Origin: Octopus vulgaris
Taxonomy: Eukaryota
Direction of reading: 5' to 3'
Assembly (NCBI GenBank): GCA_951406725.2
Contig: OX597819.1
Location: 28,892,001-28,956,000, forward strand
DNA: 64,000 nt
In this document: positions 3,421 to 59,689 of the stretch, piece by piece
Layout: each line of letters begins with the position of its first letter
Numbering within the stretch: position 1 is the stretch's first letter
The notes under the pieces: generated by a model
Databases searched by the model: none
What the model saw: the letters and a program-made list of their open reading frames with translations, nothing else
Told to the model about the DNA's origin: nothing
Translations under genes and position numbers: made by a program

Positions 3421-4524
3421 TCCTAAAATGAAATCTCCCCCACTATGTACCACATTCCTCAACAATATAGCTGAGGAAAAATACATCAAAGCAGTATTCT
3501 GCATACTGAATATAACTTTGGTAGGATCTGACATATATAATACAGTACATGTAAAACCTTTGATCAACTGATATCATTAAGCAGTTATTAGAAAAAATTC
3601 ACTTTAGTGTGCTTAAAATCCAATAACAACACTCATAATTAGTGTTACTGCATTCCTCCCTTTCTACATATATTGAATACTATTTCCAACTGAGCAGAAA
3701 GTGTATGTTCATGTGTACATGCACACACTTACACACACATACACGCATGCATACCAATATATACACACATATCTATGACTGTTTTCTCTTTGATTTCTGT
3801 ATGATGCAGTATGTGTGACATTGCTACACTCTTGTCTTTTTCAGCTGATTATGTCTGTATATATCTTACACTACCTTGCACCACTACTTTTAAATGGAAA
3901 GTTATTTTCCACAAAGAATTACCTTTCCTCTGAAACATCTCTCAATTACAAACTATACTCTAGAGATTCCAGAATCATTTTTACTTCTCTTTTCATGAAA
4001 TATCTTGCAAGTTAATAATTTCTGAAGGGAGGAAAAAAAAAAAAAAGAACTTTCTAGCATTGAAAGTGAAAGCTTTGTGTCAAGTTGTGGTTGGCTTGAG
4101 CATTTCAACAGTCCTTCAAAATAGCATAACATATAGATAACAAGTCGAGTTTGTACGTTCCAACAAAGAAGCTGTGGCTGCTTTTCTAGCTTTGCTGAAA
4201 AATATTATTGATGGAGGAGGATACACAATGCAGCATAATTTTAATGTTGGTAAGACAAACTTATTTTGGAAACAAATGCCAAAACCAGTTTACCTTTCTA
4301 AAGAAGAAAAAAATTGCACTAAATTTCAGAGCTGCCAAAGATTCTACGACTGTCCTACTTGGTGGTAGCATTTTAGGAAAACTAAAACTCAATCTGCTGA
4401 CTGTTTATCATACAAAGGTACCAGAAGCTATGGAAAGCTACTGTAAATCTTGTCCTCCTGTTATAGAGTGATAAAATAAAGGGGGCGTTTGTGTTTCTGC
4501 TCTGCTGCCAAATAATATATGTAC

Positions 4525-4877
4525 TCTTTACTCTTTTTTTTACTCTTTTATTTGTTTCAATCAGTTGACTGTGGCCATGCTGGAGCACCACCTTTAGTCG
4601 AGCAAATCAACCCCGGGACTTATTCATTGTAAGCCCAGTACTTATTCTATCAGTCTCTTTTGCCAAACCGCTAAGTGACGGGGACGTAAACACACAAGCA
4701 TCGGTTGTCAAGCAATGCTAGGGGGACAAACACAGACACACAAACACACACACACATACATATATATATATACATATATATGACAGGCTTCTTTCAGTTT
4801 CCATCTACCAAATCCACTCACTAGGCATTGGTCGGCCCGGGGCTATAGCAGAAGACAATTGTCCAAGATGCCACTGG
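4525..4877 (-). mobile_element. tRNA-derived SINE family A, 5'-truncated
   Basis: Reverse complement of the family A body (gactgtggccatgctggagcacc ... ccaaatccactcac). Confidence 0.85.
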
Positions 4878-5226
4878 TTAAGAACCTTAAAAAATAAATT
4901 CTTAATTCATGTGAACAGTACTCCATGTTTTCCATTATTACTGAATGAATTGGTATATGATGTTCAGGTAGCTTTTCTACTTCCAAATACTGGCTGGGCC
5001 AAAAGTTACGCACCAAAACAGTTGATGTTTTATATTACATTATTATTTTTTTCATAAATTTGTTTTGCAAGATTCCTGATGTGAAATCGTGTGTTGAAAC
5101 AGATATTGCTATATTTCAGGATGGCCATTCTTTTTGCTTTCTTTTTCTTTTTGACAAATAAACACATGCATTATATATTCGTTCTTCACTTGTTTATTAT
5201 TGTTCTTATTTTATCTTATGTCCATT

Positions 5227-5269
5227 GTCTGGAACTCTTTTGTCACACATCTGTGACCTCTTCAGTGAC
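5227..5269 (-). ncRNA. Degenerate hammerhead ribozyme within a PLE-like repeat (~5055-5320)
   Basis: Reverse complement reads gtca CTGAAGA g gtcaca-gatg-tgtgac AAAA gagttc cagac: perfect 6-bp stem II, with GAAA changed to AAAA. Confidence 0.55.
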
Positions 5270-5358
5270 TTCCATCCCATGTATCTCCTGTTCTGATTAG
5301 TTCATTTTTTTCTTTCTGTGATGTGTATCCTTATCATCATTAAAATTATGTGCAATAT

Positions 5359-5530
5359 AGGTGCAGGAGTGACTATGTGGTAAGTAGCTTGCTTACCAAC
5401 CACATAGTTCCGGGTTCAGTCCTACTGCATGGCACCTTGGGCAAGTGTCTTCTTCTATAGCCTCGGGCTGACCAAAGCCTTGTGAGTGGACTTAGTAGAT
5501 GGAAACTGAAAGAAGCCTGTCGTGTATATG

Positions 5531-5618
<88 letters not shown>

Positions 5619-12506: not shown

Positions 12507-13102
12507 TACAGCTGTTATGTATAGTGAACAGATGTGTAGTGTGCACTCATTGGTTTATCGTGTTCATGCAAGATAACTGAACACATCAAGCAGAGCCTTA
12601 AACCCACGTCCCATCATCATTGATGATTGTCTTCATAAAGTCTGGGTTGTAATTTACACAGTCCAACATATCTTGCAGTTTCCATGTGGTTGTTACTTCT
12701 GCTGCTCAACCAGCACCTTGGGAATAAATTTCGCTGACATTCTTCACATGCACATATCCTCAGTTAAAATGGAATGCACTGATCCTGTGCTTATTCACAC
12801 TTTGTGAACAATTTCCTGGATTATTACTCAATGGTCTTCCACAACTGTTTGCTGAACCTCATCAACTGGCTCCTTCTTTTGGCTTGTGGATGGTCTGCCT
12901 GAACAAGTCTTGCCCTCCACTGAAGTGCAGCTATGTTTGAAGTAGTTGTATGACTCCTTGATCTGAGTTTTGCCCTTGGCATCATTGCCAAAAGCCTGCT
13001 GAATTGTTTGAGCTTGAGTATCACCAAGCTTTTAGCAAAACTTGATGCAATGTCTCAGTTCAGTACACTTGGTGAATACAAAATCCGACGACCATGCACT
13101 AT

Positions 13103-13506
13103 AGGCGTAGGAGTGGCTGTGTGGTAAGTAGCTTGCTTACCAACCACATGGTTTCGGGTTCATTACCACTACATGGCACATTGGGCAAGTGTCTTCTACT
13201 ATAGCCTTGGGCCGACCAAAGCCTTGTGAGTGGATTTGGTAGATGGAAACTGAAAGAAGCCTGTCATATATATGTATGTATATATGTATGTGTGTGTATA
13301 TGTTTGTGCATCTGTGTTTGTCCCCCTAACATCGCTTGACAACCAATGGTGGCGTGTTTACGTCCCCATAACTTAGCGGTTTGGCAAAAGAGATTGATAG
13401 AATAAGTACTAGGCTTCCAAAGAATAAGGTCCTGGGATCAATTTGCTCAACTAAAGGTGGTGCTCCAGCATGGCCACAGTCAAATGACTTAAACAAGTAA
13501 AAGAGA
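13103..13506 (+). mobile_element. SINE family A, full length
   Basis: ggcgtaggagtggctgtgtggtaag head through gtaaaagag tail. Confidence 0.9.
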
Positions 13507-22074: not shown

Positions 22075-22155
<81 letters not shown>

Positions 22156-22170
22156 TTATTATATAGAAGG

Positions 22171-22221
22171 AGCTTCTACAGGACTAGTACTGTTTCATTC
22201 AAGAGAAATCTTCAGGAAGCT
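22171..22221 (-). ncRNA. Type I hammerhead ribozyme (inverted copy of 25499-25549)
   Basis: Exact reverse complement of the 25499-25549 motif. Confidence 0.85.
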
Positions 22222-22563
22222 ATTTAACAAGAATTGTATTAGCATTTATACATTTAGGCAGGTTTAAAGGAGTGGTGGTGGGGGACTTTTGGGGGTAGGC
22301 ATAGCGCAAAATATCATACTTGGGGGAGTGGTCAAGGAGTCAGTGGTAATTTAGATGAAAGAATAGATAAATAAAAAAATAAAAAAATAAAAAAATAAAA
22401 AAATAAAAATATTAAAAAAAATAAAAAAATAAAAAATATATATAAAAAATATATATATAAAAATATATATATAAAAAAAGGGGGGATAGAGTTATAGGTA
22501 AATAAGGAGATTCTCACTTATACCTATACACACATGTATACGTATCTACACACACATATATAT

Positions 22564-22618
<55 letters not shown>

Positions 22619-23054
22619 CACACATACATACATATCTACATACACACATACATACACCCGCCCACATATACAAATTTATACACATGCACATGCCTATACC
22701 TGTCTACACATACACACACGTATATATGCATACACTCACTCCCATGCATGCACGCATACACACATGTATATATATATATACATATACCCACGACCACACA
22801 TACATATATACACAGAAAAATATATATTCATACGCACATACACTCATGCACACACAACACACCTAGTTCCCTATATACACATATTTACACCTATATATAC
22901 ATACACCCACATACACATATGTACATATATATATATATATATATATACATATACACGCATACATATATATACATGTGTGCACATACATACATATACACAT
23001 ATACATACACGTACACATACACATGTGTACCTATACATACCTACACATACACAC

Positions 23055-23099
<45 letters not shown>

Positions 23100-23425
23100 C
23101 CAATACAGGCCCATTCCCTAATTTTAATTTTATTATCTTCATTTATTACTTTTGTTATCTTTGATCGCTAGAGCTAAGGATCCTGGCTATGGCAGCATGT
23201 CCATTTGTCTGTCTACTAGAAGGCAAGTACTCATTCCCGCACGCACACTCATTAGCACGTACATTCACCCATTCGTACACTCATACACATACACGTACGC
23301 ACGCGTTATATTCATACATACAAGCATCTACCTACGTTCACGTATATACACATACGTACTCGTACCTACAGATTCGTGTCTACACTTTAGGAGGCTAGTC
23401 TATACATATACACCAATAAATATAC

Positions 23426-23458
<33 letters not shown>

Positions 23459-23517
23459 TACACACACACACATATACTCCTACATACAGATACATACCTA
23501 TATATATATATATATAT

Positions 23518-23564
<47 letters not shown>

Positions 23565-24046
23565 TGCGTGTGTGTATGTATGCATATATGTATGTATGCA
23601 TGTATATGTGTATGTATATATATGTGTGTAAGTGTGTGCATATATGTATATGTAAGTATGTGTGTGCGTATGAGTATGTATGTATGCTTGCACACGTGTA
23701 TATATATGTGTGTGTGTGTATATATATGGATGCGCGTGCGTGTGTGCACGTGTATGGGTACGCATGTATATGTGTATGTGCGTGTATGTGTATACGTGTA
23801 TGTATGTATGTGTGTGCGTATATTTGTATATGTATGTGTGAGTGTGTATATATATATATATATATATAGATGGGTGTGTGTATGCGTATAAATGCATGTA
23901 AGTATGGATGTATGGATGTATGTATGTATGTATACGTATGTATGTGTGTATGTGTGTATGTATATATATATGTGTGTATATATGTTTGTGTATGTATATA
24001 TATGTGTATGTATGTGTGTGTATATATATGTGTGTATGTGTATGTA

Positions 24047-24089
<43 letters not shown>

Positions 24090-24163
24090 GTATATATGTA
24101 TATATATATATATATATATAGGTATGTATCTGTATGTAGGAGTATATGTGTGTGTGTGTATGT

Positions 24164-24195
<32 letters not shown>

Positions 24196-24515
24196 TTATT
24201 GGTGTATATGTATAGACTAGCCTCCTAAAGTGTAGACACGAATCTGTAGGTACGAGTACGTATGTGTATATACGTGAACGTAGGTAGATGCTTGTATGTA
24301 TGAATATAACGCGTGCGTACGTGTATGTGTATGAGTGTACGAATGGGTGAATGTACGTGCTAATGAGTGTGCGTGCGGGAATGAGTACTTGCCTTCTAGT
24401 AGACAGACAAATGGACATGCTGCCATAGCCAGGATCCTTAGCTCTAGCGATCAAAGATAACAAAAGTAATAAATGAAGATAATAAAATTAAAATTAGGGA
24501 ATGGGCCTGTATTGG

Positions 24516-24562
<47 letters not shown>

Positions 24563-24663
24563 GTGTGTATGTGTAGGTATGTATAGGTACACATGTGTAT
24601 GTGTATGTGTATGTATATGTGTATATGTATGTATGTGCACACATGTATATATATGTATGCGTG

Positions 24664-24694
<31 letters not shown>

Positions 24695-25000
24695 GTACAT
24701 ATGTGTATGTGGGTGTATGTATATATAGGTGTAAATATGTGTATATAGGGAACTAGGTGTGTTGTGTGTGCATGAGTGTATGTGCGTATGAATATATATT
24801 TTTCTGTGTATATATGTATGTGTGGTCGTGGGTATATGTATATATATATATACATGTGTGTATGCGTGCATGCATGGGAGTGAGTGTATGCATATATACG
24901 TGTGTGTATGTGTAGACAGGTATAGGCATGTGCATGTGTATAAATTTGTATATGTGGGCGGGTGTATGTATGTGTGTATGTAGATATGTATGTATGTGTG

Positions 25001-25055
<55 letters not shown>

Positions 25056-25498
25056 ATTTATTATATAGAAGGAGCTTCTACAGGACTTACTCTGCTATGT
25101 ATTGAGTACCTTACTTACTGTGGTTAACCCCGAATCAACCCGGGACCTACATATATATATGTGTATATATATGTGTGTGTAGATACGTATACATGTGTGT
25201 ATAGGTATAAGTGAGAATCTCCTTATTTACCTATAACTCTATCCCCCCTTTTTTTTATATATATATTTTTATATATATATTTTTTATATATATTTTTAAT
25301 TTTTTTATTTTTTTATTTTTTTATTTTTTTATTTTTTTATTTTTTTATTTATCTATTCTTTCATCTAAATTACCACTGACTCCTTGACCACTCCCCCAAG
25401 TATGATATTTTGCGCTATGCCTACCCCCAAAAAGTCCCCCACCACCACTCCTTTAAACCTGCCTAAATGTATAAATGCTAATACAATTCTTGTTAAAT

Positions 25499-25549
25499 AG
25501 CTTCCTGAAGATTTCTCTTGAATGAAACAGTACTAGTCCTGTAGAAGCT
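25499..25549 (+). ncRNA. Type I hammerhead ribozyme with complete core
   Basis: agcttc CUGAAGA u-uuc-ucuu-gaa-u GAA-Acag-uacuaguc-cugU A gaagcu. Stem I 6 bp, stem II 3 bp with a U.U closing pair, stem III 4 bp with palindromic ACUAGU in the loop. GUA cleavage predicted after 25543. Confidence 0.85.
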
Positions 25550-25663
25550 CCTTCTATATAATAAATTAATTTTACTCTGCTATGTATTGAGTACCTTACT
25601 TACTGTGGTTAACCCCGAATCAACCCGGGACCTACATATATATATATATATATATATATAATG

Positions 25664-25731
25664 TTATACTTGGAGATGGTCATATTTTGCCAATTAAGCA
25701 CATGCACTATGTATTTGGTCTTCACTTCAAC

Positions 25732-25765
<34 letters not shown>

Positions 25766-26110
25766 TTAGTTTCTTTGTCAAAGCTATTTCATTGCAAATC
25801 CTCTTCAGGAACTCTTCATTTCACATGCCTGTCAAGCACAAACACATTTTCAGATAGGGGTACACACCACAGAAAGACAAAATGAAATAGTCAGAGCAAG
25901 GGGAGACATGTGGGGAAAAAGAATCACTGAAGAGGCTACAGGATGTGTGATGAAAGAGCTTTGAGAAAAGAAACTACAAAAATAATAATAAACCTGAAAC
26001 AAAGACCAAATACAAAGTGCATGTATTTCATTAGCAAAATACAACAATCACCAAGTATAATTAATATCTGTTTGAACACGATTTCATACCAAGAATCTTT
26101 CAAAACAAAT
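25664..26110. mobile_element. Older head-to-head inverted pair of PLE-like repeats with degenerate HHR cores
   Basis: 25664-25850 is a diverged inverted copy of 25880-26060. CTGAAGA...GAAA cores at ~25777-25810 (-) and 25924-25964 (+). Homologous to 5055-5320. Confidence 0.6.
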
Positions 26111-27819: not shown

Positions 27820-28983
27820 TGTATATTTACACAAGTGAGGGCACATGGCTTAGTGATTGCAAGATTGTGATCTTGATTCCCAGATCAGGCAGTGCTTCAT
27901 GTTTTTGAGCAAAGTACCTTGTTTCACATTGCTCTGTGATTACATTGACATCTAATGAGTGGCACATCATGCATCTGTGCAGGCTATTCAGTAAGAAATT
28001 GTGGAACCCTCATCTACAACAGGAGAGTCCATCATATATATATATATAAATATATAAATATATATGCAAGTAGATGAACAAACGAAAGAAAGTAGTGCTC
28101 AACACATTTAGTCGGAGTTGTGTTTATTCACCTTTAGAATGCTTAGGCTCATCATAGCACTGTATGAGTTTTCTCCTCTGTAGCTGTAGGTGCATTGTGT
28201 TGCATTTAGAGGGGAGAAAACTCATATGACAACATGATGCATCTACAGCATGCTGAAGGTTAAATAACAGGTTGATTCAGCTCTACATCATGTAAAGTTT
28301 TGTAGGCACAGAATGCATCTACATTCAATGAACGAAATCAAGGTGTAAAGAATATAAAAGAAATTTTAAAATAGCTTCTAGGTGTAAATATTTGGGCCAC
28401 CATCGGTCACTCCAGGTCATTTCAAAGTGAAATGAAAATACAAAATACTAAAAAATACAAATGCAGAAAAAAGTGTTAGAGTATGTTGGCTGAAATAAGT
28501 GGTGATAAGAAAGGCTGAAGGGTACTAAAGGAAGAATGATTGATGTGTGTTAAAGCGTTAAGTCAATTGGTTTGTTCAGATTGACCTATTTATCTATAGT
28601 TATTTATCATATTTGGTGAATAGCCATGTTGTTGGTTACAGACTTCCAACAGGCCTTTCACTGATTCACTGCCTTTCTGATGATGAGAGCAATATGGGAA
28701 TGTTTATTATTTGGTGCGGAACACATATGACAAGACACTTCCTTCATAAAACGATGACTTTTTAGTTTTCTCAATGTGTTGTATTTCATGCTAATATACT
28801 CATCTCTCTGGGGTCGACTTTGCCTTTCATCCTTTCGGTGTCGATAACTTAAGTACCAGTTGCATACTGGGGTCGAGATAATTGACTGCGCCCAACTCCA
28901 CCAAAATTTCAGGCCTTGTGCTTAGAGTAGAAAAGAATATATTCATCTCACTCCCTCTCATATAAACATATATGTATGTGTAT

Positions 28984-29372
28984 ACTCTTTTACTCTTTTA
29001 CTTGTTTCAGTCATTTGACTGCGGCCATGCTGGAGCACCGCCTTTAGTCGAGCAAATCGACGCCGGGACTTATTCTTTGTAAGCCCAGTACTTATTCTAT
29101 CGGTCTCTTTTGCTGAACTGCTAAGTGACGGGGACATAACCACACCAGCATCGGTTGTCAAGCAATGCTAGGGGGACAAACACATACACACACATATATA
29201 CATATACATATATACGACAGGCTTCTTTCAGTTCCCGTCTACCAAATCCACTCACAAGGCTTTGGTCGGCCCAAGGCTATAGCAGAAGACACTTGCCCAA
29301 GATGTCACGCAGTGGGACTGAACCCGGAACCATGTGGTTGGTTAGCAAGCTACTTACCACACAGCCACTCCT
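28984..29372 (-). mobile_element. SINE family A, full length and young
   Basis: Near-identical to 46120-46533 and 58788-59193. Confidence 0.92.
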
Positions 29373-29869
29373 GTGTATGTACAAGATTTTGCATAAAGCA
29401 TGGTCTGATATTGATAAATGCTTTTAGTTTTTTAAAAGTAGAAACAATGTGAGTTATGAGTAACAATACAAGTTGAAGTTTTATACTTTTAGTTTGTATT
29501 TCATATTTTGGTGATAGGACCTCTTCTTCAGGAAATTGTCTGAGATTTTGTGTTGTGAGCTGACTTCTCTGTTCTGTAGTGTGTATACATTCATCTCACA
29601 AAAAACATATCTTTAAAGATTTCCTGAGGAACAGACCTGAACCCTCAAAATATTGAAATACTAAGTAAAAGTAAAAACAATTGACTTGTATTGCTTCTTA
29701 TAAATTTGGTTTAAAAGAATATATCTATAATCTCTCTCCCTCTCTCTCTCTCTCTCTACATATATATATATAACAAAAAATACGTAGAGAAAAAATTATA
29801 TCTATTATAGATCTCACCTTATAAAACTGACAATTGCTTCTGTTGCATTAACATATATATATATAATAA

Positions 29870-45234: not shown

Positions 45235-45823
45235 AGAAACTGAAAAAAGAGTGAAAAAAACTGAAGGCAGCGAGCTGGTTAAGGCAGTGAGCTGGCAGAA
45301 TTGTTAGCACACTGGGCGAAATGTGTAGCTGTATTTCGTCTGCCATTACGTTCTGAGTTCAAATTCCACCGAGACCGACTTTGGCTTTCATCTTTTCAGG
45401 GTCGATAAATTAAGTACCAGCTACGCATTGGGGTCGATGTAATCGACTTAATCCGTTTGTCTGTCCTTGTTTGTCCCCTCTATGTTTAGCCCCTTCAGGC
45501 CAGTAAAGAAATAAGAAACTGAAAAAAGAGTGAAAAAAAACTGAAGGCGGTGAGTTGGTTAAGGCAGTGAGCTGGCAGAACCATTAGCACGCCGGGCGAA
45601 ATGTGTAGCTGTATTTTGTCTGCCGTTACGTTCTGAGTTCAAATTCCACCGAGGTCGACTTTGGCTTTCATCTTTTCAGGGTCGATAAATTAAGTACCAG
45701 TTATGCATTGGGATTGATGTAATCGACTTAATCTGTTTGTCTGTCCTTGTTTGTCTGTCCTTGTTTGTCCCCTCTATGTTTAGCCCCTTCAGGCCAGTAA
45801 AGAAATAAGAAACTGAAAAAAGA
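45235..45823 (+). repeat. Tandem duplication of a family B SINE inside a family A SINE
   Basis: Units 45235-45513 and 45514-45807, bounded by three copies of agaaactgaaaaaaga. Confidence 0.85.
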
Positions 45824-45842
45824 CAGTCACATATATATATAT

Positions 45843-47249
45843 ATTGTAGAACCTCGCAATACAAGCATTCCATTGTATGAGTAATTTGCTGTATGAGCTG
45901 AGACTCATGTAAATCTTTGTCTTGGAGTACCAGGAAAAATCTGCAGTACAAGTGAGTTTCATACAAGCGACCGCTAATTATCACTGAGCGGTCGAACAAT
46001 GATGATGATGATGATGTCACTGAGCTCATGCATGCTCTCACAAGTATGGTCTCCACTCACTCAGTTCACCTGTTTATCTTGCTGTGGGCAGTATCACTGT
46101 TGTGTTTTTCCCAGTGTTTTTACTCTCTTTTACTCTTTCACTTGTTTCAGTCATTTGACTGCGGCCATGCTGGAGCACCGCCTTTAGTTGAGCAACTCGA
46201 CCCCAGGACTTATTCTTTTGTAAGCCCAGTACTTATTCTATCGGTCTCTTTTGCCAAACCACTAAGTGATGGGGACGTAAACACACCAGCATCAGTTGTC
46301 AAGCAATGCTCGGGGGACAAACACAGACACACAAACATATACACACACATACATATATATATATATACATATATACGACAGGCTTCTTTCAGTTTCCGTC
46401 TACCAAATCCACTCACAAGGCATTGGTCGGCCCGGGGCTCTAGCAGAAGACACTTGCCCAAGATGCCACGCAGAGGGACTGAACCCAGAACCATGTGGTT
46501 GGTTAGCAAGCTACTTACCACACAGCCACTCCTGTTTAGTTTTGTGCATTTTTTGCTATCATTTTATAATAATTAGTTGTGTTAGCCATGGGTCCTAAGA
46601 AAGTTAGTGCAAAAGATGGTGCTGAGAAGAAGAAATGTTATCTCTATGAGTGACATTAAGGCAGTGTTGGTGAAGTGGCTGTATGTTTCTGAATTTGTAG
46701 AATATCATCCTGAAAATGTATCTAGAGGTCATGCAGCTGCTTTATTTAATGACTCTGCTCTGGTGCATTTTCGTAACGTTTTGAAAGGCAAGAAAAAACA
46801 GACTTTTTCTTGATATGTTTCTAATGAAACGATCTGCAAGTGTAGAAAGTGAAGAAAGTGTGTCCAAAAAGCCTAAATTTAGCCAAGTGAGGGAGAAAAC
46901 ATCAGAAATTGTTCTTCCCAAAGTCTTAATAGAAGGAGAATCTCCTTCCAAACAGAAGTTCTCCTCCTCCTCCCGACTCCATCGTCTTCCTCGTGCACAA
47001 ATTGTCCCATCTTCAAGGTGATTCAGTTTTCTCTTTTTTTATAATTGTCATTTTACTTGTGACTACATCTTTTCTGCTTTAAAACCAATAAAAATTTATT
47101 TTTGAGTGGGTTAGGGGAGCTGGAACAGATTAATTATATTTTAGTTAATTTCAATGGGTAAGATTGATTTGTAAAATGAGTAAATTGTAAGATGAGCTAG
47201 GTGGTGGAATGACTTAAACAATTAAACTTGTACTGTGTGGTAGCACTGT
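45843..47249 (+). mobile_element. Internally deleted Tigger-like element with nested SINE
   Basis: MGPKKVSAKDGAEKKK N-terminus fused to a C-terminal FNDSALVHFRNVLKGKKKQT. Degenerate TIRs gtagaacctcgcaatacaag and cttgtactgtgtggtagcactg. Confidence 0.7.
46120..46533 (-). mobile_element. SINE family A, full length and young
   Basis: Near-identical to 28984-29372. Confidence 0.92.
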
Positions 47250-47361: not shown

Positions 47362-49580
47362 ATGCACGACAGAGTGTAAGCACCCTGAGAGAAATGCTAG
47401 GCATAAGAAGCATCAGATGCGGTGTGCAAGAGCGACGCTTGCGATGGTATGGTCATGTACTGCGGATGGATGAGGAGAGATGTGTGAAGAAGTGCCACTC
47501 CCGAACAGTTGAAGGAATCAGGGGGAGAGGTAGACCCAGGAAGACATGGGATGAGGTAGTCAGAGCGTTGGGCCTCACTGAGGCAATGGCGAAGGACCGA
47601 GATCTCTGGAGATGTGCTGTGACTACTAAGACCCGGGATGCTTCCGGCACCAGTTCTGCATACTCCCTGCCCATCCAAAGTACCTTGGATCCCGGAACAT
47701 CTCACTGTGCTTGAGGAGACCTGTTGAGTCAAGTGCATATACATGAACATCGAACCAAATATCAATGGAAACAGTAGCTGTGATACCTGTGCTGGTGACG
47801 CATAAAAGGCACCATCCGAACGTGGCCGTTGCCAGTGCAGCCTCGACTGTTTTCTGTGCCGGTGCCACACAAAAAGCACCATCCGAACGTGGACCGATGC
47901 CAACCCCACCTCGAATGGCTTCTGTGCCAGTGGCACATAAAAAGCACCATCCGAACGTGGCCGATGCCAGCACCGCCTCGACTGGCTTCTGTGCCGGTGG
48001 CACATAAAAAGCACCAACCGATCGTAGGATCCCGGAACATCTCGCTGTGCTTGAGGAGACCTGTTGAATCAAGTGCATATACATGAACATCGAACCAAAT
48101 ATCAATGGAAACAGTAGCTGTGATACCTGTGCTGGTGACGCATAAAAAGCACCATCCGAACGTGGCCGTTGCCAGTGCAGCCTCGACTGGCTTCTGTGCC
48201 GGTGGCACACAAAAAGCACCATCTGAACGTGGACCGATGCCAACCCCGCCTCGAATGGCTTCTGTGCCAGTGGCACATAAAAAGGACCATCCGAACGTGG
48301 CTGATGCCAGCATCGCCCCGACTGGCTTCTGTGCCGGTGGCACATAAAAAGCACCATCCGAATGTGGCCGATGCCAGCACCGCCTCGACTGGCTTCTGTG
48401 CCGGTGGCACATAAAAAGCACCAACCGATTGTAGGATCCCGGAACATCTCGCTGTGCTTGAGGAGACCTGTTGAGTCAAGTGCATATACATGAACATCGA
48501 ACCAAATATCAATGGAAACAGTAGTTGTGATACCTGTGCCGGTGACACATAAAAAGCACCATCCAAACGTGGCCGTTGCCAGTGAACATCGAACCAAATA
48601 TCAATGGAAACAGTAGTTGTGATACCTGTGCCGGTGACACATAAAAAGCACCATCCGAACGTGGCTGTTGCCAGTGCAGCCTCCACTGGCTTCTGTGCCG
48701 GTGGCACATAAAAAGCACCATCCGAACGTGACCAATGCCAACCCCGCCTCGAATGGCTTCTGTGCCGGTGGCACATGAACATCGAACCAAATATCAATGG
48801 AAACAGTAGTTGTGATACCTGTGCCGGTGACACATGAAAAGCACCGTCCGAACGTGGCCATTGCCAGTGCAGCCTCCACTGGCTTCTGTGCCGGTGGCAC
48901 ATAAAAAGCACCATCCGAACGTGACCGATGCCAACCCCGCCTCGAATGGTTTCTGTGCCAGTGGCACATAAAAAACACCATCCGAGCTTGGCCGACGCCA
49001 GCACCGCCCCGACTGGCTTCTGTGCCGGTGGCACATAAAAAGCACCAACCGATCGTGGGATCCCGGAACATCTCGCTGTGCTTGAGGAGACCTGTTGAGT
49101 CAAGTGCATATACATGAACATCGAACCAAATATCAATGGAAACAGTAGTTGTGATACCTGTGCCGGTGACACATAAAAAGCACCATCCAAACGTGGCCGT
49201 TGCCAGTGAACATCGAACCAAATATCAATGGAAACAGTAGTTGTGATACCTGTGCCGGTGACACATAAAAAGCACCATCCGAACGTGGCTGTTGCCAGTG
49301 CAGCCTCCACTGGCTTCTGTGCCGGTGGCACATAAAAAGCACCAACCGATCGTGGCCGATGCCAGACCCCGCTCTGGCATGGCTTCTGTGCAGGTGGCAC
49401 ATGAAACAGCACCCTCTACACTTGCGGAGTGGTTGGCGGATAGGAAGGGCATCCAGCTGTAGAAACACCGCCAGATCAGACTGGCCATTGCCTGGGGCAG
49501 CCCCTGGCTCCCCAGACCCCGGTCGAACCCTCCAACCCGTGCTAGCGCGGAAAACGGACGTTAAACGATGATGATGATGA

Positions 49581-55700: not shown

Positions 55701-57423
55701 TCTTCTTTTACATGTTTCAGTCATTGGATTGCAGCCATACTGGAGCACCACCTTGAAGGATTCAGTTGAACATGTCTATCCCAGTACTTGTATTGTAAAT
55801 TTGGTACTTACTCTATCGGTTTCTTTTGACCAACAGCTCAGTTAGGGGATAAAAGCATGCCAATACCAGTTGTCAAGCCGTGGGGTAGGGGACAAACACA
55901 CAAATACACACATATAGGACAGGCATTCACACGGTTTCATTCTACCAAATTCCCTCACAGGACATTGGTTTGCTTGGGGCTATAACCGAAGATGTTTACC
56001 GAAAGTGCCATGCAGTGGAAATGGGCTCAAAACCACATGGTTGTAAAGCAAGCTTCTTAACCACACACACACACACACACAAGCTTTATAGAATACTTAA
56101 GATACACTAGTGTGCTACTAGGTAAGCTATTAGAACTCTAATGGAATAGACATTCACCTTCCATTTGTTTATTAGGAATGGATGACAAGTGAATTGAACT
56201 TTGAGGTCAAGTAACTTCCTAGCCATGAAATTTAAGCAGCACATTTGTACATCGTAAGAACTTTGCAAAGATCCCGTCTAACTTTGCCAGAGGTATTGAG
56301 TTCTCTCTACTTGTTCAATGTTCACATATTAACAGATTATATGTGTGTGTGTGTGTTTATATGTGTATATGTATGTGTGCATGTGTATTTGTATTTGTAT
56401 CTGTTATGTATATATTATACATTATATATATATATATATAAATGGCGGTGCCCCAGCATGGCCACAGCTCGTGAGCTGAAACTAGAATCAATCAATCATA
56501 TATATACACAAACACACACACATGTATTTTATATATATTTGCATATATATATATATGTGTGTATGTATATTATGTATATATGTATTTATGAATTTTTATG
56601 TGTATTTTTGAAAATACAATATAATATATATTCAGTTAAAGTCATCTATGGAAAGTACTTCACTTTTCATGTGAAGGCAAAATAGCTGAGTGACCAATTA
56701 CATAACTTACTGGACCACTAACCATCTTAAATCTACTATGGAAATTTTGTTGTGTATTTGGACACCACTCTCAGTTCTGTGTGTCAGTATAGAATATGTT
56801 CCAGATCATCTGAACACATTGTTTGCAGTAGACTTATGCCATGTCCTGAAGAAGATTTATATTGTTCTGCTTAACACCGTGAAATGTAACTTCTTATAGG
56901 CTCTGTTAGGCTTCAATGACATTTACCATTTTTTTTATTTATTTATATTCCTGACATATAAATATAACCAAAGTGCTGTATGTGAGTATGCATATATGAG
57001 TATGCACGTGTACATACATGCATATACTCACCCACCATCACCGTACATACATGTCTCCAAGAATAAAAATACTCGTAAACCAAAAAATCCAAGGTATCTT
57101 AAGTTCCATCAGTTATAGTTAGTTATTGATTTCTAGCGAATCCAAAATGTCAACCATTCAGTAGAAATACTAAATGCAATTCTCCAGAGTAAAATAGGTG
57201 GATATATCTAAATGCTATTGACGTAATATTTACAACTATTTTATTACCGCTTATATCATGATTTTGAAATTATTTAATTCTCTTCAAATCTTTCAATGAA
57301 TTATACACTAAAATATCATTTCTTTTAGTAAGAAATTCACTTTTTTGTTATTTTTACCTCAATTTCAATGATTTGTGATGATGATGTAAGAATTTGCTGA
57401 GTTCAAATTTTATTTACTCTTGG

Positions 57424-57808
57424 TTTCTTTTTACTCCCTTTTACTTGTTTCAGTCATTTGACTGCGGCCATGCTGGAGCACCGCCTTTAGTTGAGCAAAT
57501 CGACCCCAGGACTTATTCTTTGGAAGCCTAGTACTTATTCTATCGGTCTCTTTTGCCGAAATGTTAAGTTATGGAGATGTAAACACACCACCATCAGTTG
57601 TCAAGCGATGCTGGGGGGACAAACACAGACACACAAACATATATATACACATATACATATACACAACGGGCTTCTTTCAGTTTCTGTCTACCAAATCCAC
57701 TCACAAGGCTTTGGTCGACCTGAGGCTATAGTAGAAGACACTTGCCCAAGGTGCCATGCAGTAGGAATGAACCCGGTTGATGAGCAAGCTACTTACCACA
57801 CAGCCACT
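57424..57808 (-). mobile_element. SINE family A
   Basis: Reverse-complement full body with a small head deletion. Confidence 0.88.
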
Positions 57809-58112
57809 GAAAAGTATTTTTTAAAAATATCATAGTAACAACAGTTATGATTTATCAAAGATATGATATGCCGTGTTTGAGAAGACCTGTCGAACCAAGT
57901 GAAATCACAGCCATGGCTGATGCCATTGTTGTGTAACTGACACCTGTGCTGGTGGCACATAAAAAGCACCATTCGAATGTTGGGCCTCATGGAAGCAATG
58001 ACAGGTGACTGAGATCTTTGGCAATATACTGTGCTTGAGAAGATCTGTCAAGCCAAGTGAGATCATAGTCATGGCTGATGCTGGTGCTGGGTAACTGGCA
58101 CCCATGCCAGTG

Positions 58113-58787: not shown

Positions 58788-59193
58788 TTACTCTTTTACT
58801 CTTTTACTTGTTTCAGTCATTTGACTGTGGCCATGCTGGAGCACCGCCTTTAGTTGAGCAAATCAACCCCGAGACTTATTCTTTGTAAGCCCAGTACTTA
58901 TTCTATCGGTCTCTTTTTGCCGAACCGCTAAGTGATGGGGACGTAAACACACCAGCATTGGTTGTCAAGCAATGCTAGGAGGACAAACACAGACACACAA
59001 ACACACACACATACATATATATATACATATATACGACAGGCTTCTTTCAGTTTCCATCTATCAAATCCACTCACAAGGCATTGGTTGGCCCGGGGCTATA
59101 GCAGAAGACACTCGCCCAAGATGCCACGCAGTGGGACTGAACCCAGAACCATGTGGTTGGTTAGCAAGCTACTTACCACACAGCCACTCCTGC
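58788..59193 (-). mobile_element. SINE family A, full length and young
   Basis: Near-identical to the 28984 and 46120 copies. Confidence 0.92.
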
Positions 59194-59689
59194 TCATATT
59201 TTTGTACCCCAAATGGTAAATCCAAGAACCATTTATTGTCATATGATTAAAGCTAAAATTGCAGATTTTATCCAACATTCAACTTTATTAATTTTTAAAA
59301 ATGTTTGTATTGATGTAGATATGGCTGTATGGTTAAGACAGTCAATATGCAACCCAGTAGGATGCAGGTTAAAATTCTGTGCCATTTCACAATATTTTGA
59401 ATGATTGTCTCCTGCTACAGCCTTGGGCTGATCAGTCTCTTCTGAGTGGAATTGCTGGACAGAAATTGAGCTGAAGCTTGTTTGTGTGTGTGTGTGTGTG
59501 TGTGCGTGTTTTTTTTTGTGTGTGTGTGTGTACCACATGGTTCTGAGTTCTGTCCCACTACGTGGCACCTTGGGCAAGTATCTTCTACAACAGCCTCCGA
59601 CCAGCCAAAGCCTTGTGAGTGGTTTTGTGAGTGGTTTTAGTGTGTGTGTGTGTGTGATGACTGACTAACTGTTGATGTTCCAGTATAGT

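Follow-up and report, generated by a model that had tools for sequence, protein, structure and literature searches.

A 3.5-kb foldback in a chromosomal contig of Octopus vulgaris is, judged from its sequence, a single insertion consisting of two 5'-truncated copies of a Penelope-like element (PLE) joined head to head within a (TA)n tract. Based on this locus and its relatives across the 2.8-Gb genome, we propose that it probably formed by a staggered cut, with both target strands priming cDNAs on one capped, uncleaved RNA. The locus alone is an ordinary dead copy, since head-to-head copies sharing one tail are the published PLE layout. The inverted 5'-truncated copies and the one-sided tail are described in PMC8557442, which names their origin as an open question and records, for Penelope-13_HM, an inverted copy truncated at its 5' end together with hammerheads on both strands; PLE hammerheads on opposite strands, 100-700 bp apart, have also been reported (PMC4209133). 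Recently active Penelope families are known from an octopus genome, in a paper whose main text does not contain the word hammerhead (PMC13282606). The young, high-copy family described here is a natural data set that makes this mechanistic question directly testable.

Structure of the foldback at 22150-25639

The window is the whole 64,000-nucleotide stretch analysed, and coordinates count from its first base. Global alignment of 22140-23600 with the reverse complement of 24060-25660 gave 1,391 matching columns and delimited the reverse-complement arms as 22151-23540 and 24070-25566. The features of the locus are as follows (+1 is the first base of the hammerhead; unit positions refer to the 5.4-kb parent element described below).

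22086-22151, unstranded: left (TA)n target tract
22150-23540, minus strand: left arm, 5'-truncated and untailed 3' UTR plus hammerhead, ending in AATAAAT (unit ~4078-5459)
22171-22221, minus strand: type I hammerhead motif, left copy
22244-22250, minus strand: TATA-like box (TATAAAT) 29 nt upstream of hammerhead +1, putative outward-pointing promoter
23530-23561, unstranded: head-to-head junction in a self-complementary (TA)n tract
23541-25639, plus strand: right arm, 5'-truncated and tailed, including the 0.5-kb centre (unit ~3538-5528)
25042-25057 (left copy) and 25151-25166 (right copy), plus strand: 16-nt target duplication of a nested insertion; the left arm keeps the empty site
25058-25150, unstranded: nested same-family insertion, with a 29-nt inverted untailed arm (25058-25086) and a 64-nt tail arm (25087-25150)
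25470-25476, plus strand: TATA-like box 29 nt upstream of hammerhead +1
25499-25549, plus strand: type I hammerhead motif; 25499 is the putative capped start (+1), with predicted cleavage after A25543
25560-25566, plus strand: AATAAAT, the point at which untailed arms end; putative RT start site 1 (+68)
25567-25639, plus strand: 73-nt tail, which belongs to the 5' UTR where copies are full-length, ending CTACATAT; putative RT start site 2 (+141)
25636-25660, unstranded: right (TA)n target tract

These results agree with a preliminary description of the locus as a 3.5-kb foldback with reverse-complement arms of ~1.4 kb and the same 51-nt hammerhead at 22171 (-) and 25499 (+), which is exact in both arms. 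That description had attributed the arm differences to microsatellite lengths, one insert of ~100 bp and one substitution. The insert (109 nt, 25058-25166) and the length differences are present (TA-run gaps of 2, 2 and 4 nt, two 1-nt homopolymer gaps and a 10-nt gap within an A-rich tract), but there are two internal substitutions, at 22431 and at 23011, the latter a CpG transition. With 2 differences in ~1,390 aligned bases, the earlier view is retained that a PLE-type element inserted very recently in (TA)n and that its hammerhead looks intact. The one-sided tail is likewise correct (73 nt, right arm only), but AATAAA, which had been assigned to the right arm, is found in both. Composition 'largely of microsatellite' holds in a loose sense, as strict repeat makes up 27% of the foldback and purine/pyrimidine-alternating sequence 60%. 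The 0.5-kb centre is element sequence in plus orientation, not an unrelated loop. By its layout, the 109-nt insert is a second mini-insertion from the same family, nested in the right arm and accompanied by a target duplication of 16 nt. The window copy has no ORF or protein-coding match by tblastn, and a scan by eye of the window's ORFs recognised no host exon. A through-transcript of the locus would be expected to fold into a 1.4-kb duplex, which the preliminary description regarded as a possible ADAR or Dicer substrate; the putative promoters lie at the outer ends and point outward, so transcription of such a hairpin would need host read-through.

Several neighbouring features were observed in the window. 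The right flank (25662-26060) is an older dispersed repeat with inverted ends that matches many loci at 70-80% identity; it may be a MITE adjoining the (TA)n tract. A composite tandem array with 67-, 92-, 193- and 340-nt periods, and SINE-like repeats duplicated in tandem over 280 nt, occupy 47687-49413 and 45235-45823, and dispersed SINE-like families occur in both orientations, with long-range inverted pairs (4518-4951, 5351-5577, 13095-13505, 28968-29385, 46109-46546, 57411-57834 and 58915-59204).

The parent element and its hammerhead

Exact tailed ends of the family number at least 2,206 genome-wide, and longer copies run upstream into an ORF encoding reverse transcriptase (RT) and a GIY-YIG endonuclease (EN). 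A 5,387-nt unit (L109) comprises the hammerhead at +1, the tail, an ATG at +183 opening a 713-aa ORF, and a 3.06-kb 3' UTR that holds most of the unit's 16 (TA)≥6 tracts. The microsatellite stretch of the window copy aligns collinearly with the 3' UTR found in full-length copies that bear the ORF, and because both window arms map to unit positions without the ORF, the microsatellite 'cargo' is the element's own 3' UTR. The locus had initially been described as a non-autonomous PLE-type insertion with (TA/TG)n-like cargo, a description that is not supported: the copy is a truncation, short of the ORF, of an ORF-bearing family, and the supposed cargo is the normal 3' UTR. The unique blocks singled out earlier, when checked for copy number, proved high-copy and 99-100% identical among the best 40 candidates scored.

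When 8,000 candidates were scored against the L109 protein (P0001), at least 1,085 proved to be relatives at E≤1e-20, and its LDIEDYY, SMGAND, YRDDGL and LVY..YIG motifs align to homologues. The following characters place the family in the Hydra clade of EN+ PLEs (Craig et al. 2021, PMC8557442; Hydra-1_Obim, Penelope-13_HM). A single ORF with RT and GIY-YIG, as in EN+ PLEs, is found in L109 and is absent from the window copy, and the GIY-YIG domain lies at the C-terminus, as in the Hydra clade. Among the RW(K/R) and DKG-to-DKT marks of the clade, P0001 carries RWR (RWK in most homologues) and SDKTK; the CxCX5C linker, CxxC and CxH are represented by CNCHDKTTC, CDLC and CMH. No internal CCHH was seen in the protein alignment, again as in the clade. 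A canonical hammerhead and (TA)n targets are also shared, the ends entering (TA)n in nearly all sampled copies. Hydra-clade elements are 'generally <3 kb', a descriptive and not a diagnostic trait, whereas the octopus unit reaches 5,387 nt because of its 3.06-kb microsatellite 3' UTR. Its tail is 73 nt instead of 30-40 nt (PMC8557442), its hammerhead sequence differs from that of Hydra-1_Obim, and it is abundant in mini-foldbacks of roughly 250 bp. The architecture was already known; what is new is a variant of the Hydra clade whose microsatellite 3' UTR is unusually long and whose tail is also long. Motifs rule out the Neptune clade (CX2-5CxxC linker plus CCHH), and the features of the Naiad clade (N-terminal endonuclease) were not found. 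In Pfam, P0001 matched neither RT nor GIY-YIG, with a GIY-YIG match in 1 of 12 aligned members, and a PDB sequence search with a 118-protein profile returned nothing meaningful.

Of 164 ORF copies listed, the first 100 were compared at a C-run ahead of the endonuclease; it is one base short in 76 and in frame in 18 (hand count), and a large part of the family may therefore depend on mobilisation in trans; where the run is interrupted, 6 of 7 copies are in frame (hand count). The short run could represent a real frameshifted lineage, homopolymer error or ribosomal slippage. As separate observations, the run (L049:1205-1225) resembles a -1 slippery site, and its length differs between the two arms of one foldback on C8. 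Head-to-tail full-length tandems of ~5.2 kb occur at four loci (L095, L105, L107 and L108), corresponding to the partial-tandem/pseudo-LTR arrangement of EN+ PLEs; they could be either source loci or products of rolling-circle copying. Upstream of the main ATG are two very short ORFs (window 25522-25536 and 25581-25589). Other PLEs have a retained 5' UTR intron, and this family may have one too. An RT fragment of another PLE-like kind (L044:8023-9000, minus strand) adjoins one foldback of the family.

Exact copies of the hammerhead number 1,402 genome-wide, compared with none for a reversed-pattern control, a number far above chance. Rfam gave no hammerhead match at the gathering score and the folding z-score is -0.17; the call therefore rests on the intact core (CUGAAGA-U ... 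U-GAAA, GUA), on stems I-III and on agreement with the published Hydra-clade table, several entries of which share CUGAAGAU...UGAA (PMC8557442). The GUA site is read through by at least 6 nt in 2,143 of the 2,206 tailed ends (97%), a figure that is silent on in vitro activity; the templates used appear to have been uncut at the hammerhead site, or religated. Linked variants upstream, at +34 and at +101 distinguish two lineages of the family (L181-L220 versus L111-L170), only one of which keeps the palindromic ACTAGT context of loop III.

Foldbacks, RNA 5' ends and target sites across the family

The foldback is the norm for the family and does not set this locus apart. The first 100 exact hammerheads on C1 formed 32 outward-facing pairs and a single inward pair within 12 kb. 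One end of the outward pairs lay at the tail (+136 to +141) and the other near AATAAAT (~+68) in 31 of 32, the remaining pair being undecided, and no pair had two tails. Both ends of two-armed insertions almost always enter (TA)n; one-armed insertions are also common. Best-hit lists supplied 21 (the window copy among them) and position-ordered lists 31 of the 52 long foldbacks compared. A single tail was present in 51 (50 scored; L134 has one tail with a variant base), L109 being the tail-less exception. This is the one tail per insertion known from PLEs, but with 73 nt in place of the 30-40 nt in print. The tailed arm was longer in 23, the untailed arm in 12 (by >300 nt), and in 15 the arms were within 300 nt of each other; truncation points differ from copy to copy.

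The two arms of an insertion are closely related. Across 40 foldbacks (window included; blocks with >6 differences dropped) they differed at 55 of 22,679 sites, with a fivefold enrichment at CpG (11/1,100 versus 44/21,579 elsewhere). At block B3 both arms had the same haplotype in 28 of 31 distinct long pairs, counting L098 and L115 as one locus; in two of the three exceptions the block is truncated and projects poorly. The +34 variant was shared by the arms of 38 of 40 mini-foldbacks; the two discordant cases suggest that two templates are used at times. Sequence upstream of +1 is present in each of the 15 ORF-bearing copies that have a 5' hammerhead, so that long copies need multimeric, circular or strand-transferred templates. 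Among 150 arms compared for haplotype switches at the cleavage site or at +1, which might distinguish circular from strand-transfer templates, only a few (L206, L212, L139 and L144) look recombinant.

Mini-foldbacks of roughly 250 bp are represented by 781 junctions genome-wide. Taking tailed ends in their order along C1, up to the 65th, both arms started at +1 or later in 28 cases and both extended upstream in 18, with one mixed case; 17 ends had no detectable partner, and one, mispaired with a neighbouring insertion, was dropped. Arms of one insertion thus fall in the same template class (Fisher p=4e-12, 47 two-armed cases). Short arms began exactly at +1 in 36 of 61 and never between -1 and -8 (0/61), and TATAAAT lies 29 nt upstream of +1. 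By hand count, 26 of the first 50 mini junctions have a G before +1, 15 overlap at AGCT and 9 are truncated, and none carries the genomic T before +1; in at least 4 of the 50, an extra G is present on both arms around filler. Untemplated G at retrotransposon 5' ends has been ascribed to cap copying (PMC3287187), and we infer that hammerhead base +1 is the capped RNA start. Cap copying is one of several possible origins of this G: microhomology with the partner arm could supply it in at least 13 of the 26 junctions, and a 1-nt stem I fold-back is another possible source.

Targets were scanned in 103 two-ended structures, most of which sit in pure (TA)n and are unreadable. Among targets with G/C interruptions, four have 16-18-nt duplications, including that of the nested insertion in the window (29 nt of inverted untailed end plus 64 nt of tail), and four lack a clean duplication (L055, L128, L134 and L213). 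Microhomology to the RNA may account for up to ~4-6 nt in every duplication.

Proposed mechanism and its alternatives

In the proposed mechanism, the simplest account of these patterns, Pol II would start at hammerhead base +1 below the TATA box and produce a capped RNA, on which the hammerhead would stay uncut or be religated. The RT/GIY-YIG protein would cut both (TA)n strands ~12-18 nt apart, one 3' end priming at +68 and the other at +141, and this difference would leave the tail in one arm only. Each cDNA would extend to its drop-off, or to the cap if priming takes place on the 5' copy of these sites; the latter would yield the mini-foldbacks of roughly 250 bp. The cDNA ends would then anneal via short self-complementary sequence, (TA)n at this locus and AGCT in the minis, followed by fill-in. 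In its favour are the single tail per insertion, the fact that either arm may be the longer one, the 16-18-nt duplications, the sharp edge at +1, the template class and haplotype shared between arms, and the read-through of the GUA site. Against it stand the 17 of 65 tailed ends with no detectable partner, the four interrupted targets lacking a clean duplication, the tail-less L109 and the two discordant minis, and the model leaves the template type of long copies unspecified. It fits in vitro data on the anole PLE, whose protein cleaves and extends both strands from two RT start sites bounding the tail, uses uncleaved RNA and is predicted to form a dimer (PMC11167929).

An alternative origin would be single priming, in which a cDNA begun at the tail end folds back and is copied, with endonuclease resolution trimming one tail. 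The arms of an insertion nearly always share a haplotype and many junctions are palindromic, as this predicts, and endonuclease resolution has been put forward in print to explain the tail (PMC8557442). However, a tailed arm should then never be the shorter one, and the 12 of 52 foldbacks with an untailed arm longer by >300 nt are therefore not what simple one-cDNA fold-back predicts; the extra G on both sides of filler and the two minis with arms of different haplotype also speak against it, and we consider it unlikely. Still less probable is self-priming of an antisense transcript into a head-to-head hairpin that then integrates, as proposed for rotifer Penelope elements. This would account for head-to-head polarity and palindromic junctions (PMC3846280), and symmetric trimming could uncouple the tail from arm length, but it leaves unexplained the sharp sense +1 edge with an added G below a sense TATA box, as well as the two fixed 3' ends with AT target microhomology and target duplication.

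We give very little credence to the reading as a distinct non-autonomous element that carries microsatellite cargo and acts as a hairpin RNA with a terminal ribozyme. The window copy encodes no protein (tblastn negative), and mobilisation in trans may be common given the prevalent one-base-short C-run, but the collinearity with the 3' UTR of coding copies, the variable truncation points and the outward direction of the putative promoters contradict it, and its separate-element version is already largely refuted. An assembly or fold-back read artefact is conceivable in that the locus is known from the assembly and microsatellite-rich palindromes are hard to assemble. It is nevertheless highly improbable: the tail and the nested insertion with its own target duplication sit on one arm only, the flanks are unrelated (the right flank with a single 100% match), element-defined ends recur across chromosomes, and within-pair differences are CpG-enriched, as expected for genomic mutation.

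Twin priming at this locus may reflect a general rule, and we regard it as about an even chance that PLEs integrate by obligate twin priming, one RT-endonuclease complex making a staggered cut and launching a pair of cDNAs, each from its own start site on a shared capped RNA, so that inverted repeats and one-sided tail would arise in a single event. Under this proposal the minis, at least 781 in number, would be paired strong-stop cDNAs recording the capped start at +1, and the family, carrying its own (TA)n targets in its 3-kb 3' UTR, would seed the microsatellites it inserts into. If true, this would explain the long-puzzling PLE layout. It makes predictions at base level (start at +1, RT starts at +68 and +141, a stagger of ~12-18 nt and an uncleaved template), and the family has an intact ORF suited to testing them in vitro. 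Our search of openly accessible papers found no earlier twin-priming account of PLEs. The family seems to have recently supplied this genome with kilobase foldbacks and microsatellite DNA.

The model has a counterpart in L1 twin priming, reportedly described by Ostertag and Kazazian in 2001, in which both cut target strands are said to prime cDNA on the RNA and the cDNAs to join by microhomology, producing an inversion with target duplication. Priming from both strands, microhomology joining and target duplication are common to our proposal. In L1 the second primer reportedly lands far upstream, giving two pieces without overlap, whereas the start sites of the octopus family are 73 nt apart, so that the arms overlap almost fully and form a foldback. 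The Poseidon element PAc of the green anole (Frangieh et al. 2024, PMC11167929) resembles the octopus family in its two internal RT start sites bounding the tail, extension of both target strands, AT-rich targets and independence from hammerhead cleavage. It belongs to a different clade, with start sites 111-118 nt into the ORF and not in the 5' UTR, and the available text of that paper draws no link between both-strand priming and head-to-head insertions. Non-LTR retrozymes (bioRxiv 10.64898/2026.07.22.740005) are also short type I hammerhead repeats derived from PLE ends, but form head-to-tail tandems or monomers, in contrast to the head-to-head minis found here; the window locus is not a retrozyme, its arms being head to head and collinear with a coding element.
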